This document shows, one piece after another, positions 1-61,499 of a DNA stretch of 64,000 bases. The notes under the pieces are model-generated. The model worked only from the letters and a program-made list of their open reading frames with translations, was not told the DNA's origin and made no database searches. Source of the stretch: Escherichia coli (GTDB lineage Bacteria > Pseudomonadota > Gammaproteobacteria > Enterobacterales > Enterobacteriaceae); the NCBI RefSeq assembly GCF_022846255.1, contig NZ_AP025682.1. One strand, written 5' to 3'. Numbering within the stretch: position 1 is the first letter of the stretch; each line of letters opens with the position of its first letter. The position numbers and the translations under genes were made by a program.

Positions 1-219
1 TTTTCGATCATTCGTGAGGCTGGAAGACGTGCAGGATTAGCTGTAAAAGCACATCCTCATATGTTACGTCATGCCTGTGGTTTTGCTCTGGCTGACAATG
101 GTGTCGATACCCGACTACTTCAGGATTATCTGGGTCATCGAAATATTCAGCATACTGTCAGATACACAGCCAGTAATGCTGCTCGATTTAAAGGGGTGTG
201 GAAAAAAAAGCCTCGTTAA
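1..219 (+). CDS. Tyrosine site-specific recombinase, FimB/FimE family, C-terminal 72 codons only (5' end outside window)
   Basis: Frame-1 translation ...HPHMLRHACGFALADNGVDTRLLQDYLGHRNIQHTVRYTASNAARFKGVWKKKPR* has the conserved catalytic tail of FimB/FimE-type invertases; stop TAA 217-219. Track ORF 71-277 is the overlapping other frame. Confidence 0.8.
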   Translation, partial: FSIIREAGRRAGLAVKAHPHMLRHACGFALADNGVDTRLLQDYLGHRNIQHTVRYTASNAARFKGVWKKKPR

Positions 220-231
220 AACAGTACCTTC

Positions 232-247
232 TGATTCAAAATGTCAG
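232..247. repeat. Left inverted repeat TGATTCAAAATGTCAG
   Basis: Perfect 16-bp reverse-complement match to 494-509; starts 13 bp after recombinase stop. Confidence 0.7.
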
Positions 248-493
248 ATTCCTACGTTTTCCTCAATTCTTCCATAAAAAAACAGCTCATTCAATTAAAT
301 AAAACACATAACATGTTGATATTTCTCGCTAAAGTAAAATAACCCCATGATTTGAAATGATTAACCATAAAGGTCATACCAGTGATCAGTTTTCACTCGC
401 GTTGTTAAATAACACAAAATTAAAAACAATAAAAATCAAACAAATTAGATTTATATTCCAAGAAAATTAAATATTCAGGCTATTAAACCAAAC

Positions 494-509
494 CTGACAT
501 TTTGAATCA
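494..509. repeat. Right inverted repeat CTGACATTTTGAATCA
   Basis: Perfect reverse complement of 232-247; lies inside a perfect 33-bp palindrome (490-522) that ends 27 bp before the LuxR start codon. Confidence 0.7.
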
Positions 510-548
510 AAATGTCAGGTTTTGTAGCAATGGCGTGGACGAGTCTGA

Positions 549-1343
549 ATGAAGAAGCCTCTGGTTATTATCAGTGCCTGTCAGTTCACCAGGCTGGCAC
601 TGGAGTCTCTCATCCCAACGGACAGGTATCTCGTGCGGGTGTACAGCAACGTCACTACAGAGGTTGAATTCGTTTTAAAGACCTCCTGTGGCTACCTGTT
701 AGCTGATATCCCATCGCTTCCTTCGGGGGAGTTGGTTCTTCTGGCTTGTCTTGTCCGCTTGCGGAGTGATGCCGGGCAATGGCAGGTCTGCCTGACCGGT
801 GACTCCGACTGGTTCGATAATGCTCCTGCTGCAAGTCTGTATAACGGCTTCCCACGCATCGGCACCATGCTGACAGCGAGTCGTTATCAGAATCAAATTA
901 TCCGCTGGTTACTACGTCCTTTGCCCGGCGATATGAGCGATTTCTGGCTCCTGACTGCACGGGAGTTGAGCGTGCTTAAGATTCTGATGCAGGGTATGAG
1001 TTTCAGTGAGATTGCCCGTTATGAACAACGCAGTTCAAAGACCCTGCATGCGATTGCCACACGGGCTTTAATGAAACTTGGACTGGGAACACTGAGCGAT
1101 TTCAGGCTGCTCTATACGGGATGCGGTGACAGCAGAGTGAAACGGAATATACGGCTACATGCAAAATATATCGGACAACATTCCGCTCATCGACTCACTC
1201 AGTATGTGCAGAACATGGTATCCGGAATTCTTTATCCAGAGAAAGTTGCCGTTGGTGAATCAATAAATTCTGACGCCATATCCGGAAAAGTACTTTCCGG
1301 ACAAAGAAAAAATATGTCTAAAAAAAGACCAGGATTGTTATGA
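549..1343 (+). CDS. LuxR-family transcriptional regulator (264 aa), atypical N-terminal domain
   Basis: ATG at 549; LuxR-type HTH ...LTARELSVLKILMQGMSFSEIARYEQRSSKTLHAIATRALMKLGLGT...; N-terminus receiver-like but lacks the acidic DD pocket. Confidence 0.75.
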   Translation: MKKPLVIISACQFTRLALESLIPTDRYLVRVYSNVTTEVEFVLKTSCGYLLADIPSLPSGELVLLACLVRLRSDAGQWQVCLTGDSDWFDNAPAASLYNGFPRIGTMLTASRYQNQIIRWLLRPLPGDMSDFWLLTARELSVLKILMQGMSFSEIARYEQRSSKTLHAIATRALMKLGLGTLSDFRLLYTGCGDSRVKRNIRLHAKYIGQHSAHRLTQYVQNMVSGILYPEKVAVGESINSDAISGKVLSGQRKNMSKKRPGLL

Positions 1344-1496: not shown

Positions 1497-2258
1497 ATGC
1501 GTTTCGTTCTTTTCTGTCCCTCAGGAATTGTACCAGCGCAGTTCGCAGCTCTATCAACCGGTTCTGTCGGCAATGTTACCTGCATCAGAACAGAAGAGGA
1601 GTTACGCAATAAATTGCGGCACAGGCCACAGAGTGTCGTGATATCGGCAGGGCGACCTGCCGAATGCGCTGAAATGTGGTTCCGATTTTATCGGGATCAC
1701 TCATTCGTGGTGGTGTTGTGCGTCGCACCCTTTTTTCTGCCACCAGATGTGAGTATTTCTGGCGTTCTCAAAAACCTGAGGTTACTGAAACCAGGAATGT
1801 CAGTAGAGCGTGTCATCAGTATTGCAAATGCCTCTGGTGGGTTTTCAGGGCTGAAACATGCAGAAATTTTGCCAGTTATGGACAGTTACTCTGTCTTTAT
1901 GAAAGAGGTGAATAACCGCACAAAGACAATCGTCATGTCAGAACGCTTCCCGGAAAAGCAAAAGAAGGTGTTGTCGTTGCTTCTTGCCGGACACAGCTGG
2001 GAATACAGTGCGCAGTTTCTCAAAACGGGGATAAGACAGATATGGCTTGCCGAGCAGTCGCTAAAAAAGCGTTGGGGAATACCGGACAGCATGTCATTGC
2101 GGGAAGCCCTGCTGCTTGGCAGCAATAAATTTCACGGTGATGGAAACGCATTGGAAACAACGAATGCCATGACATTGCGTGAAAACGGAAATACCAACAG
2201 GTATTCCGTGGTGGTAAATGCAGGGACGCAGGCTTTATCTCTGCATAAATATAAATAA
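1497..2258 (+). CDS. Second LuxR-like regulator (253 aa), degenerate HTH
   Basis: ATG at 1497 with AGGGAAGG SD; C-terminal ...EKQKKVLSLLLAGHSWEYSAQFLKTGIRQIWLAEQSLKKRWGI... resembles a LuxR/GerE HTH. Confidence 0.55.
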   Translation: MRFVLFCPSGIVPAQFAALSTGSVGNVTCIRTEEELRNKLRHRPQSVVISAGRPAECAEMWFRFYRDHSFVVVLCVAPFFLPPDVSISGVLKNLRLLKPGMSVERVISIANASGGFSGLKHAEILPVMDSYSVFMKEVNNRTKTIVMSERFPEKQKKVLSLLLAGHSWEYSAQFLKTGIRQIWLAEQSLKKRWGIPDSMSLREALLLGSNKFHGDGNALETTNAMTLRENGNTNRYSVVVNAGTQALSLHKYK

Positions 2259-2299: not shown

Positions 2300-4762
2300 A
2301 TGAAAAACAGTAAGGCATTTTACCGCAGCGCATTAGCAACAGCTATTGTTATGGCTCTTTCTGCACCAGCATTCGCTGCTGATAAAGCGGTATCAACTGA
2401 TTCGGTTACGCTGAATAAAGATAAGACAACTCTGGATCAAGATGTTGTTATTAACGGTGATAACAAGATTACAGCCGTAACAATTGAAACGTCAGATTCA
2501 GATAAAGACCTTAATGTTACTTTTGGCGGTCACGATATTACCGCCGCATCAACGGTAAACCAAGGTTTCGTTGAAGGTGTAAAAGTTAGCGGTGACAAAA
2601 ATGTTGTGATTAATGCTACAGGCTCCACCATCACAGCTCAAGGTGAAGGCACCTATGTCCGGTCTGCAATGGTCATTTCTTCAACTGGCGATGTTGTTGT
2701 TAATGGCGGTAATTTCGTTGCAAAAAATGAAAAAGGTAGTGCGACAGGGATATCTCTGGAAGGGCCCCAGGGAAATAATGTCACGCTCAATGGCACAACC
2801 ATAAATGCTCAAGGCAATAAGAACTCCAGCAACGGCTCCAGGGCAATTTTTGCTCAAAAGGTTAGCGGATTGGATGGTTTTAACGGTGATGCAACAGACA
2901 ACATTACCCTTGCTGGCTCAAATATTATTAATGGTCGGATTGAAACAATACTTATTGCCAAGGAGAATAAGGGAACTCATACAGTCAACCTGAATATTAA
3001 GGATGGCTCAGTAATTGGGGCGGCTAATAATAAACAAACAATTTATGCCTCAGCTTCGGCACAAGGAACAGGTTCAGCAACGCAAAATTTAAATTTGTCT
3101 GTTGCTGATTCAGCCATCTACTCTGATATCAAGGCCCTTTCTGTAAGCAATAGTTCAGTCGGTACCACAACAAATGTAAACATGAACGTTGCCCGCTCTT
3201 ACTGGGAAGGTAATGCTTATGCTGATGCTTATGGCGATAAAGCGAGTAGTAATCTGAATATAAATCTTTCCGATGGCTCAGTCTGGAAAGGTAACGTAGG
3301 TAAAGGTCTGGATGGTAGTGCACGTGTCACACTGAAAAACTCCAGCTGGGATGGTGATGTCAACAACGCCAAAACTGCTGTTTTTCTGACGGATGGTTCT
3401 GTGTGGAATGGTGCTGTTTCCATTAACGCGCCAGTGGACCGCGCATCAGTACCAATGGGCTCGGTTCAACCAAATAAAAGCAGTGTATCTCTGCAAAACG
3501 GGTCTGTCTGGAATGTTACGGGAGCCTCAACTGTTGATGCTCTGGCAGTAAAAGACAGTACGGTTAATATCACGAAGGCTACAGTCAATACTGGCACGTT
3601 TGCTTCTCAAAACGGCACTCTGATTGTTGATGCCTCTTCTGAAAACACTCTGGATATCAGCGGAAAAGCGAGCGGTGACTTGCGTGTTTACAGTGCGGGT
3701 TCATTGGATCTTATCAATGAACAAACGGCATTTATTTCTACCGGCAAAGACAGCACTCTAAAAGCCACAGGCACAACGGAAGGTGGTCTGTATCAATATG
3801 ACCTGACACAGGGAGCTGATGGTAACTTTTATTTCGTAAAAAACACGCATAAAGCATCCAACGCCAGCTCCGTGATTCAGGCAATGGCAGCTGCTCCGGC
3901 TAACGTTGCTAATCTGCAGGCTGACACGCTCTCCGCCCGTCAGGATGCTGTCCGTCTGAGCGAAAATGACAAGGGCGGCGTATGGATTCAGTACTTTGGC
4001 GGTAAACAGAAACATACCACCGCGGGAAATGCATCCTATGACCTGGATGTAAATGGTGTAATGCTGGGTGGTGATACCCGCTTCATAACTGAAGATGGTA
4101 GCTGGCTGGCCGGTGTGGCGATGTCTTCTGCGAAAGGTGACATGACTACCATGCAGAGCAAAGGTGACACTGAAGGTTACAGCTTCCACGCTTACCTGAG
4201 CCGCCAGTATAACAACGGTATCTTCATTGATACTGCTGCACAGTTTGGTCACTACAGCAACACGGCAGATGTTCGCCTGATGAATGGTGGCGGTACCTTT
4301 AAAGCTGACTTTAACACCAATGGTTTCGGTGCGATGGTTAAAGGTGGTTACACCTGGGAAGACGGTAATGGCCTGTTTATTCAGCCATATGCCAAACTGT
4401 CTGCTCTGACGCTGGAAGGTGTGGATTATCAGCTCAACGGCGTGGACGTTCATTCTGACAGCTATAACTCTGTGCTGGGTGAGGCCGGTACGCGCGTGGG
4501 TTATGACTTCGCTGTGGGCAACTCGACCGTTAAACCTTATCTGAATCTGGCCGCACTGAACGAATTCTCTGATGGCAACAAAGTCCGTCTGGGTGATGAG
4601 TCTGTCAATGCCAGCATTGACGGTGCAGCATTCCGCGTGGGTGCAGGTGTACAGGCTGATATCACCAAAAACATGGGAGCATATGCTAGCCTTGACTACA
4701 CCAAAGGTGACGACATTGAGAACCCGCTACAGGGTGTAGTTGGTATCAATGTGACCTGGTAA
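2300..4762 (+). CDS. Autotransporter (type Va) adhesin, pertactin/AIDA-like passenger plus C-terminal beta-barrel
   Basis: Signal peptide MKNSKAFYRSALATAIVMALSAPAFA; passenger repeats (NGTTINAQG, DGSVWKGNV, DGSVWNGAV, NGSVWNVTG); C-terminal translocator ending ...GVVGINVTW. Track ORF starts at TTG 2267; ATG 2300 has GGAG SD. Confidence 0.85.
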   Translation: MKNSKAFYRSALATAIVMALSAPAFAADKAVSTDSVTLNKDKTTLDQDVVINGDNKITAVTIETSDSDKDLNVTFGGHDITAASTVNQGFVEGVKVSGDKNVVINATGSTITAQGEGTYVRSAMVISSTGDVVVNGGNFVAKNEKGSATGISLEGPQGNNVTLNGTTINAQGNKNSSNGSRAIFAQKVSGLDGFNGDATDNITLAGSNIINGRIETILIAKENKGTHTVNLNIKDGSVIGAANNKQTIYASASAQGTGSATQNLNLSVADSAIYSDIKALSVSNSSVGTTTNVNMNVARSYWEGNAYADAYGDKASSNLNINLSDGSVWKGNVGKGLDGSARVTLKNSSWDGDVNNAKTAVFLTDGSVWNGAVSINAPVDRASVPMGSVQPNKSSVSLQNGSVWNVTGASTVDALAVKDSTVNITKATVNTGTFASQNGTLIVDASSENTLDISGKASGDLRVYSAGSLDLINEQTAFISTGKDSTLKATGTTEGGLYQYDLTQGADGNFYFVKNTHKASNASSVIQAMAAAPANVANLQADTLSARQDAVRLSENDKGGVWIQYFGGKQKHTTAGNASYDLDVNGVMLGGDTRFITEDGSWLAGVAMSSAKGDMTTMQSKGDTEGYSFHAYLSRQYNNGIFIDTAAQFGHYSNTADVRLMNGGGTFKADFNTNGFGAMVKGGYTWEDGNGLFIQPYAKLSALTLEGVDYQLNGVDVHSDSYNSVLGEAGTRVGYDFAVGNSTVKPYLNLAALNEFSDGNKVRLGDESVNASIDGAAFRVGAGVQADITKNMGAYASLDYTKGDDIENPLQGVVGINVTW

Positions 4763-60122: not shown

Positions 60123-61499
60123 TTAGCTGCACATTTCCAGCACCGAATCGAAAATCTCGGCCCCGGCGGAAATGACTTTCAGATTGGCTTCATAAATTTG
60201 TTGATAGGTGATCAGGTTCACCGCCTCTTCGTCCATGCTGACGCCGCTGACGCTACTCTGCTGGTTTTGCGCTTCGGAATAGACATTGGACGCGGCATCG
60301 ACTTCCGTCTGGTTTTGCTGACTGTAAATGCCGATATTGCTGATGATTGACGAGCACGCCTGCCCGACCGTCACACTGCCGAGGTTGGCTATCTCCAGCG
60401 GTTCGGTGGAGATATTGATCAGCGCCTGCAGGTTGTCGCTGTTGCCGCTTTCGTCCGGTGAACTGGAAAACGCCAGCTCATCGGCAGTGATATCCGGGTT
60501 AACGGTCAGTGGGCCGTCGGCATTGCTGGCATCGTAAATAAACAGTGGCTCGCCGGGGTTACCGTTGAGATCGTAGCCCTGCGCCAGCTGGTTGTTGACC
60601 GCATCGGCGAACTGCGACGCCATGCTGTTGATGGTGTCGGTCAGCGGCGTCAGCACATCGTTTTGATAATCAAACAGTGCGCCTAATGAACCGCCAGTGT
60701 CGGTGGTCATCGTCGAGATGGTTCCGGCGAAGGTCAGCGTCATACTTGCTGTACCATCGGCGTTGGTTTCCAGCGCGATGGTCGAGCTTTGCTGCCCGCT
60801 CACCAGCGGCTGACCGTTTTTCAGGGTGACGTTGTAGTTGCCCTGGTCGTCAACATTGACCTGCACGTCCATCATTCCGCTCAGTTCTTCCACCATCTGA
60901 TCGCGGGCGTCGTACAGCGCGGAGGCGTTATCGCCGTTGGCTTCGGCCTGAGCGATTTGCTGGTTATAGCTGGCGATGCCGCTGGTCAGCGTATTGATTT
61001 GCGATACCATCGCCTGCTGCTGACTGATGATTTCCGTGCTTTGCGAGTCGATGTAATCCAGCGTGTTGTCGATGCGCAAGGACAGCGCCCCGGCTTCGCT
61101 GATCACCTGCTCGCGCAGGGCGGAATCATCGGGGCTGGTGGTCGCTTCGTTAAGGGCAGCGAAAAAGTTATCGAAGCCGCCGCTCAGACTGCTGTTATCG
61201 TCGCTCAGTACCGCTTCCAGTTGTGTGAGATACCCTTGTTGGGTGCTGTAATAGCCGTAATCGCTGGCGGCATACCATACCTGATTAACCTGATACTGGT
61301 TGGAGACGCGGCGAATACTGTCGACCTGCACGCCGTTACCGGCGCTGTTCGGCGAACCACCGCTGGCACCGATGGTGCTGATCTCCGCCACCTGGCGGGT
61401 GTAGCCCGTGGTCATGGCGTTAGCGGTGTTTTGCGCCGTGACGTTCAGCTCCACCTGCGCGGTTGATGCGCCGCTGTAGCCGATGTTAATCATGTCCAT
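60123..61499 (-). CDS. lfgK: Hook-associated protein 1, FlgK-like
   Basis: 458 aa, MDMINIGYSGASTAQVELNVTAQNTANAMTTGYTRQ... Confidence 0.85.
   Translation of the reverse strand: MDMINIGYSGASTAQVELNVTAQNTANAMTTGYTRQVAEISTIGASGGSPNSAGNGVQVDSIRRVSNQYQVNQVWYAASDYGYYSTQQGYLTQLEAVLSDDNSSLSGGFDNFFAALNEATTSPDDSALREQVISEAGALSLRIDNTLDYIDSQSTEIISQQQAMVSQINTLTSGIASYNQQIAQAEANGDNASALYDARDQMVEELSGMMDVQVNVDDQGNYNVTLKNGQPLVSGQQSSTIALETNADGTASMTLTFAGTISTMTTDTGGSLGALFDYQNDVLTPLTDTINSMASQFADAVNNQLAQGYDLNGNPGEPLFIYDASNADGPLTVNPDITADELAFSSSPDESGNSDNLQALINISTEPLEIANLGSVTVGQACSSIISNIGIYSQQNQTEVDAASNVYSEAQNQQSSVSGVSMDEEAVNLITYQQIYEANLKVISAGAEIFDSVLEMCS

Follow-up and report, generated by a model that had tools for sequence, protein, structure and literature searches.

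The DNA between fimX and hyxR in Escherichia coli as the likely hyxS promoter switch of PAI-X: recombination sites, natural forms and orientation

Identity of the locus and its genes

Does the DNA between a Fim-type recombinase gene and a LuxR-type regulator gene form a phase-variable promoter switch, and if so, which of the switches known from E. coli is it, and in which state was it sequenced? The question is raised by the left end of the window, i.e., the whole stretch of 64,000 nucleotides of E. coli DNA that was analysed. The initial annotation described here the end of a recombinase gene at 219, a perfect pair of 16-bp inverted repeats around an AT-rich segment and the start of a LuxR gene at 549, and read them as a fim-type switch upstream of a LuxR/autotransporter operon. 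These positions are exact, and the architecture is borne out by the natural inversion at these repeats that is described below and by the published record of the locus. Frame 1 is open over 1–219 on the plus strand (72 codons, with the stop codon TAA at 217–219), and the translated fragment, which is the C-terminus only of the protein, carries the HxLRH, LGH and RY catalytic motifs of the FimB/FimE family of tyrosine DNA invertases. It matches the NCBIfam models NF007371 and NF007370 with E-values of 1e-33 to 1e-35 (7.5e-35 for NF007371, 'tyrosine-type DNA invertase'). The gene is fimX, also named ipbA or hbiF, and its 5' two-thirds lie outside the window. Over its visible part, FimX does not differ from the C-terminus of the intact IpbA WP_001362381.1, and it has one K-to-R difference from FimX of strain UTI89.

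The left inverted repeat (IRL), TGATTCAAAATGTCAG at 232–247 on the plus strand, starts 12 nt past the fimX stop codon. The right repeat (IRR) lies at 494–509 on the minus strand, reads CTGACATTTTGAATCA on the plus strand and is the exact reverse complement of IRL. The two repeats enclose the invertible segment of hyxS, 246 bp (248–493) with a GC content of 26.8%, compared with 49.2% for the window. Chance would yield about 0.009 perfect inverted pairs of 16 nt, no more than 600 bp apart, in 64 kb, and none of 1,000 shuffles of 220–548 reached a 16-nt pair (the maximum, 15 nt, occurred once); on these shuffles a chance origin of the repeats was rejected.

Positions 1–2300 have matches that cover at least 80% of the query in 1,850 of 5,426 complete E. 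coli genomes, with 95–99.4% identity. Among the matches listed, RefSeq names ipbA, hyxR, hyxA and then hyxB or an unnamed autotransporter in 25 of 25 cases, and its product text for ipbA reads 'also known as HbiF and FimX'. In the near-identical RefSeq locus that was examined, betA and ykgH flank these genes, and in the window ykgH, ykgG and ykgF come next, 3' of hyxRAB. The betA-fimX-hyxS-hyxRAB-ykgH locus is the pathogenicity island PAI-X, which is reported to be enriched in uropathogenic E. coli. Its switch, hyxS, has been characterised in the uropathogenic strains UTI89 and CFT073 (Bateman and Seed, 2012, as cited in PMC6083910 and PMC6458436). It adjoins fimX, has 16-bp inverted repeats, is inverted by FimX as the sole recombinase and controls hyxR (PMC6083910), and its inversion in UTI89 and CFT073 was detected by whole-genome sequencing solely under FimX overexpression (PMC6458436). 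The element of the window occupies the same locus as hyxS of these two strains, with identical 16-bp repeats, the same 246-bp spacing and the same orientation, and the differences are allelic only: the 246-bp segment has 13 differences from UTI89 and 15 from CFT073, or ~94–95% identity as converted from alignment scores. We identify the stretch, with a probability of about 0.93, as the published hyxS promoter switch of PAI-X, inverted by FimX and controlling hyxR; its dependence on FimX and its control of hyxR are taken from the literature. Because the existence, repeats, recombinase and first target gene of this switch have been published, the finding itself is already known, as is the general mechanism.

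The first gene under the switch is hyxR (549–1343, plus strand), which encodes a LuxR-family regulator of 264 aa according to RefSeq annotation and the literature. The same sources give hyxA (1497–2258, plus strand; 253 aa), for whose product a family search returned no match. The third gene, hyxB or upaB (2300–4762, plus strand), encodes an autotransporter adhesin with an autotransporter beta-barrel (TIGR01414, E = 1.8e-68); its product is 820 aa long from the RefSeq-type ATG at 2300, where the initial annotation had 821 aa, and its passenger domain has a 55-aa insertion in alignment with UTI89. From the gene order, and from later papers that name a hyxRAB operon, hyxA and hyxB are assumed to be co-transcribed with hyxR. 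Published work links hyxR, hyxA or hyxRAB to nitrosative-stress tolerance and macrophage survival, to O-antigen chain length and serum resistance (HyxA being reported as a minor chain-length regulator), and to UpaB-mediated adhesion. Inversion has also been linked to transient phage resistance, 'hyxR invertase inversion' being among the mutations of transiently phage-resistant clones (PMC12361893).

In the mechanism proposed for this element, FimX would bind both ends and exchange strands within the 16-bp inverted repeats, probably in a 7-bp core, TGATTCA, so that the segment 248–493 flips. In the ON state, transcription from the promoter of the segment would cross IRR and enter hyxR, and would probably extend to hyxA and hyxB/upaB; in the OFF state it would run back toward fimX. 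Since the segment that flips would carry the promoter, individual cells would switch hyxR and the genes behind it heritably and reversibly.

Recombination sites and natural forms of the element

The states of the element were counted among the 5,426 complete E. coli genomes with two queries, window 98–643 (546 bp) and the same sequence with 248–493 reverse-complemented. The window orientation is present end to end in 1,780 genomes, and the inverted version, end to end and in one piece, in 15, where 248–493 is exactly reverse-complemented. A base-by-base check of two inverted genomes (L002 and L003) found the repeats unchanged and everything between them flipped. In one of the two, GPEC1035, ipbA is intact and hyxR-hyxA differs by 0 SNPs from that of 2014C-3338, which carries the forward form. 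Together with 88 genomes in which the element is excised, as described below, 1,883 genomes were classifiable out of 1,891 with any match. Six of the 15 inverted genomes, at ~94–95% identity, are annotated with only a partial 'DNA recombinase', and in the one examined, L003, fimX is down to 37 codons beside an IS66-family element. These genomes look like naturally locked inverted alleles. That all six are inverted is consistent with inversion by FimX alone, itself known from the literature.

The right end of the element is part of a larger symmetry, missed by the initial annotation. A perfect palindrome spans 490–522, with 16-bp arms at 490–505 and 507–522 around a 1-nt centre, and comprises IRR and an outer arm. 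Since IRR is half of this palindrome, a third copy of the repeat, likewise overlooked, stands in direct orientation to IRL at 503–518 on the plus strand (TGAATCAAAATGTCAG, 15 of 16 positions), where it forms the outer arm of the right site. Its one mismatch with IRL, A506 vs T235, falls in the middle of the proposed core. Judging from the sequence, the 7-bp near-palindrome TGATTCA at 232–238 would be the crossover core. Next to the core, hyxS has the arm AAATGTCAG, which flanks the right site on both sides, whereas the left site has another sequence as its outer flank. The outer flank of the left site, AACAGTACCTTC at 220–231 on the plus strand, is unlike the other three arms and is conserved in related switches. 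In its aligned context it reads ACAGTACCTTC in the window, ACAGTTCATTC in a rare E. coli paralogue (L018) whose recombinase is 81% identical to FimX, and ACCGTACGTTC in the switch of the Salmonella T1 antigen (L014); we propose that this flank may serve as a recombinase half-site. The part of the repeat common to hyxS, the paralogue and the Salmonella switch is TG(A/G)TTCA, with AAA in addition in two of the three: the Salmonella switch shares the core TGATTCAAAA, and the core of the paralogue is TGGTTCA. A scan of the genome contig collection with the pattern CAAAATGTCAG-N(240–270)-CTGACATTTTG matched no Escherichia or Salmonella contig. Its sole match, in a metagenome-assembled genome of Saprospiraceae, is an unrelated tandem array of palindromic repeats and was set aside as a chance hit.

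As RNA, the palindrome of the right end is predicted to form a strong hairpin with UUUUGU after it. The computed folding energy is -25.8 kcal/mol (z = -6.9) for the orientation of the window, and the inverted allele reaches -19.3 kcal/mol, so that a strong hairpin sits between the element and hyxR in both orientations; in the excised allele the value is -10.6 kcal/mol and not significant. The hairpin could attenuate read-through from fimX, or it could merely mirror the symmetry of a protein-binding site.

Excised alleles were found with a 60-nt probe across the predicted deletion junction. In 88 of ~1,890 locus-bearing complete E. coli genomes, 271 bp, from 248 to 518, are precisely missing, and the distance from the fimX stop to the hyxR start is 58 bp, compared with 329 bp normally. 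The central base at the junction is A in 69 of these genomes and T in 19. The excised alleles occur on at least four haplotypes: that of clone D i14, with 0 SNPs from CFT073; that of 2009C-3133 and APEC E12049, which a forward genome and an inverted one share with 0 SNPs; that of SA186 and BCE-1; and that of Trh52.

How could such alleles arise? The dyad symmetry of the right site makes its outer half, at 503–518, a direct repeat of IRL, and FimX may therefore occasionally join the two and excise the promoter element irreversibly. Endpoints that recur unchanged, with two variants of the junction, would be in keeping with a recombinase that from time to time excises the element across a mismatched core, and strand exchange over the mismatched base should leave both central bases at the junctions, as is seen. 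Replication slippage between direct repeats of 12–16 nt would also yield the same alleles. That hyxS is more than a reversible switch, with FimX now and then excising the whole promoter element by recombination of IRL with the outer arm, is thus offered tentatively, as a possibility that we hold to be rather doubtful. If true, hyxS would be a three-state locus (OFF, ON and permanently fixed), and the junctions would indicate where a Fim-family recombinase crosses over. No description of the excision alleles was found in two papers that discuss hyxS, and they may already have been reported elsewhere. The new material is modest and consists of the census of states in complete genomes (1,780 in the reference orientation, 15 inverted and 88 excised), the apparently locked alleles and the site model; only the excised forms, the lineage locked in the inverted orientation and the shared layout of core and promoter might be additions to the literature.

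Promoter, orientation and competing readings

The initial annotation placed a sigma70-like promoter that points at hyxR on the plus strand at 445–473. Its hexamers, TTAGAT (445–450) and TAAATA (468–473), are indeed present at these positions with a 17-nt spacer, but just 2/6 and 3/6 of their positions agree with the sigma-70 consensus, and the T at -7 is lacking. A promoter scan of 150–620 on both strands with a threshold of 9/12 found no promoter-like site, and the pair is absent from a relaxed scan too; its fit to the consensus is weak, and it is unlikely to be the switch promoter. The best candidate lies on the other strand, at 294–266, with a -35 element TTGAAT (294–289), a 17-nt spacer and an extended -10 element TGgAAGAAT (274–266). 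In the relaxed scan it has the top score on either strand, 8/12 plus the extended -10, and several other 8/12 sites occur on the plus strand at 392–457. The layout TTGnnn-17-TGn-nAGnAT is kept at the same place in the E. coli paralogue and in the Salmonella T1 switch. From the sequence, the minus-strand site is the most likely candidate for the switch promoter. It faces fimX in the window, and after inversion it would face hyxR with an estimated 5' UTR of ~67 nt.

This arrangement suggests that the window orientation is OFF, an assignment that we regard as quite probable. The orientation is shared with the UTI89 and CFT073 reference genomes and with 1,780 of the 1,883 classifiable genomes. CFT073 showed no hyxS variation from its reference in cultures without FimX overexpression (PMC6458436), and CFT073 strains that lack all five recombinases are described as hyxS OFF (PMC6083910). 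Alignments of the segment interiors were also compared in both orientations. The hyxS interior is colinear with that of the paralogue (z = 4.6 vs 1.2 when reversed), and the paralogue is colinear with the Salmonella assemblies examined (z = 3.6 vs 0.7); a direct alignment of the hyxS and Salmonella segments gives near-equal values for the two orientations (z = 1.2 vs 0.9). Since almost every GenBank isolate is reported to be OFF (PMC11294581), this state is assumed for the Salmonella assemblies as well.

The opposite assignment, in which hyxS stands in the ON orientation and is read toward hyxR from the plus-strand pair TTAGAT/TAAATA, was implied by the initial annotation. It can draw on the presence of both hexamers at a 17-nt spacing and on the other 8/12 sites of the same strand at 392–457. 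The abstract of Bateman and Seed reportedly describes a transition 'from high to low HyxR expression', and this wording would be compatible with a high starting state. However, the pair reaches only 5/12 of the consensus without the conserved T at -7, and a better site, conserved in related switches, stands on the other strand. The window orientation is also that of the CFT073 reference, from which cultures without FimX overexpression do not depart, and by inference that of the recombinase-null strains described as OFF; it is held by 1,780 genomes against 15, and for the homologous Salmonella switch the OFF state is reported in nearly all database genomes. An ON state in the window is for these reasons unlikely, and the literature implies OFF for the orientation of the UTI89 and CFT073 references. 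A different objection to the OFF-state switch would be that nothing switches at all, the repeats being purely structural (a terminator or hairpin after fimX, or a relic) in a strain where the segment no longer inverts. The very stable RNA hairpin with its U-run at the right end (-25.8 kcal/mol) would suit such a role, 94% of the locus-bearing genomes have one orientation, lineages with an IS-truncated fimX exist, and the 5' part of fimX, outside the window, may carry an inactivating lesion in this strain. Yet the two repeats are perfect and do not differ from those of strains with demonstrated inversion, a terminator role leaves the matching repeat 246 bp away unexplained, and a terminator scan of 150–620 found none at threshold. 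Moreover, one haplotype carries forward, inverted and excised switches next to a FimX allele to which the visible part is identical, a sign of recent activity. A loss of inversion is therefore very unlikely, and hyxS is probably a working switch in this strain.

The last competing reading concerns identity. A resemblance to the ipuA-ipuS-ipuR-upaE locus of uropathogenic E. coli had been noted in the initial annotation, and the architecture is indeed the same: a Fim-like tyrosine recombinase (ipuA/ipuB), an invertible promoter element of ~260 bp, a LuxR-type regulator and an autotransporter. Some similarity has been reported between the half-sites of ipuS and hyxS, and a 19-nt patch at window 497–515 has a weak match (E = 0.024) at the 3' end of ipuA. 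In a direct comparison with the ipu locus of CFT073, however, the recombinase core alone is similar (78% of nucleotides over 129 nt; 70% of amino acids between IpuA and the FimX fragment), the intergenic switch DNA does not align apart from the 19-nt patch, and HyxR and IpuR share 33% identity over 51 aa only, in the HTH. The ipuS element has 7-bp repeats, one of them inside ipuA, around 260 bp, lies in the argW island (PAI-CFT073-argW) and precedes two genes (PMC6083910), whereas the window has 16-bp repeats, with IRL 12 nt past the stop codon, the betA-ykgH site and three genes 3' of the element. FimX can invert ipuS as well (PMC6083910); ipuS is inverted by four recombinases, or five according to a later study, and hyxS by FimX alone. 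That the stretch is ipuS is thus extremely improbable, and the identity with the ipu locus was rejected: the locus is fimX/ipbA-hyxS-hyxRAB, and ipu is a paralogous system. Two further candidates were discarded in the course of this comparison. The pheU island of CFT073 is not the site of ipuA, which a review table places in the argW island, and P0056, considered as a possible IpuA, is the recombinase of an unrelated fimbrial switch.

Relation to other Fim-type switches

The hyxS element belongs to a class of switches, with fimS, ipuS and the Salmonella T1 switch, that are inverted by Fim-family tyrosine recombinases. Its founding member is fimS, the switch of type 1 fimbriae, in which a tyrosine recombinase (FimB or FimE) inverts a promoter segment between short inverted repeats. 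Inversion of fimS needs IHF and Lrp, and that of hyxS is reported to be independent of IHF. The repeats of fimS are 9 bp long and enclose 314 bp upstream of fimA, and the element drives fimbrial genes; the window, in contrast, has 16-bp repeats of another sequence with 246 bp between them and no fimbrial genes downstream. The half-sites of fimS are reported to align poorly with those of hyxS. FimX acts at fimS too (PMC6083910; PMC6458436). How Fim-family recombinases recognise such dissimilar sites has been named an open question (PMC6458436), and the census, the apparently locked alleles and the site model outlined above, with its putative 7-bp core, dyad right site and promoter layout common to hyxS, the Salmonella T1-antigen switch and the rare E. 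coli paralogue, could guide work on it.

The Salmonella switch (PMC11294581) has a recombinase, STM0716, that is 72% identical to FimX, and a homologue of HyxA, STM0718 (39%), is encoded downstream. It shares with hyxS the core, the left outer flank and the minus-strand promoter layout, and, like hyxS, it is found in nearly all database genomes in one orientation, which is OFF in all but one GenBank isolate (PMC11294581). Its interior, on the other hand, has diverged from hyxS beyond reliable alignment, and what it controls is a cluster for an O-antigen-like polysaccharide, in place of a LuxR regulator and an autotransporter. In the Salmonella locus analysed here, its repeats are 10 bp long (9 bp in the paper; PMC11294581) and enclose 269 bp.

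Excised and inverted alleles of the hyxS switch

The 271 bp lying between the left 16-bp inverted repeat (IRL) of the invertible promoter switch hyxS and a direct copy of this repeat are precisely missing in 88 of 5,426 complete E. coli genomes. The direct repeat pair bounding the deletion, as seen in six deletion loci (L008-L013), corresponds to positions 232-247 and 503-518 of the window. The copy at 503-518 matches IRL at 15 of 16 positions and constitutes the outer arm of the right inverted repeat (IRR); the single mismatched position is occupied by A in 69 of the deletion genomes and by T in 19. The 271-bp deletion is found in at least four haplotype backgrounds. It is an allele of hyxRAB without the switch, in which the spacing between the recombinase gene fimX and hyxR is only 58 bp.

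In six genomes matching the inverted-orientation query (H35-H40, ~94-95% identity), from dogs (four), a human (one) and the environment (one), the recombinase is listed as partial only, and hyxS is inverted relative to the window in all six. In the one of these that was inspected, E. coli 2018-10-2CC, 37 codons of fimX are left, adjoining an IS66-family element (L003:2408-3114). The six genomes probably carry naturally locked, putatively ON alleles of hyxS.

A palindrome at the right end of the switch

IRR is one half of a perfect palindrome with 16-bp arms (window 490-522). RNA of this region forms a hairpin followed by UUUUGU, with a folding energy of -25.8 kcal/mol in the window orientation versus -19.3 kcal/mol in the inverted allele; the excised allele lacks the hairpin. 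The structure may serve as a terminator or attenuator; alternatively, it may reflect the mere symmetry of the recombinase site.

The hyxB/upaB allele and other features of the window

HyxB/UpaB of the window (2300-4762) comprises 820 aa, compared with 765 and 763 aa in UTI89 and strain 2014C-3338, respectively; relative to both, its passenger domain carries an insertion of 55 aa, around residues 334-393. Identity to these two proteins outside the insertion is ~92%, with variation greatest in the N-terminal passenger region.

The hyxR-hyxA gap (1340-1480) harbors a 46-codon ORF overlapping the hyxR stop codon (ATGA), which is not annotated in RefSeq relatives. Besides IRL and IRR, the window has just one perfect inverted pair of 16 nt whose copies are within 600 bp of each other, TGCTGACGCCGCTGAC (60236-60251 / 60640-60655), situated in GC-rich sequence.

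A paralogous module and other recombinase loci

Three draft assemblies labelled E. coli (L017-L019) possess a PAI-X-like paralogous module at another site, adjoining genes for LysR, acetolactate decarboxylase and acetolactate synthase; it was found in none of the 5,426 complete RefSeq E. coli genomes searched. Its recombinase (4001-4567) shows 81% identity to FimX, and is accompanied by a segment of 200-241 bp between 18-bp inverted repeats, TGGTTCAAAATGTCAGAT, with genes for HyxR-like (51%), HyxA-like (45%) and autotransporter (33%) proteins coming next. The invertible segments of two assemblies differ by a 41-bp insertion (L017:4780-4800 versus L018:4780-4840), which contains a small inverted repeat of its own, TTTGCGGGATATTATGCCGCAAA.

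A pattern scan of genome contigs for the hyxS-type repeat pair gave a single match, in a Saprospiraceae MAG (L007:1780-2210). This locus is unrelated to hyxS, being instead an array of ~56-62-bp units, each with CAAAATGTCAGCCCTATGGGC, that face both orientations about a centre. On a 9-kb E. coli contig, two divergent Fim-like recombinase genes (L020:417-1831) are situated upstream of a chaperone-usher fimbrial operon, a candidate for another fim-type switch.
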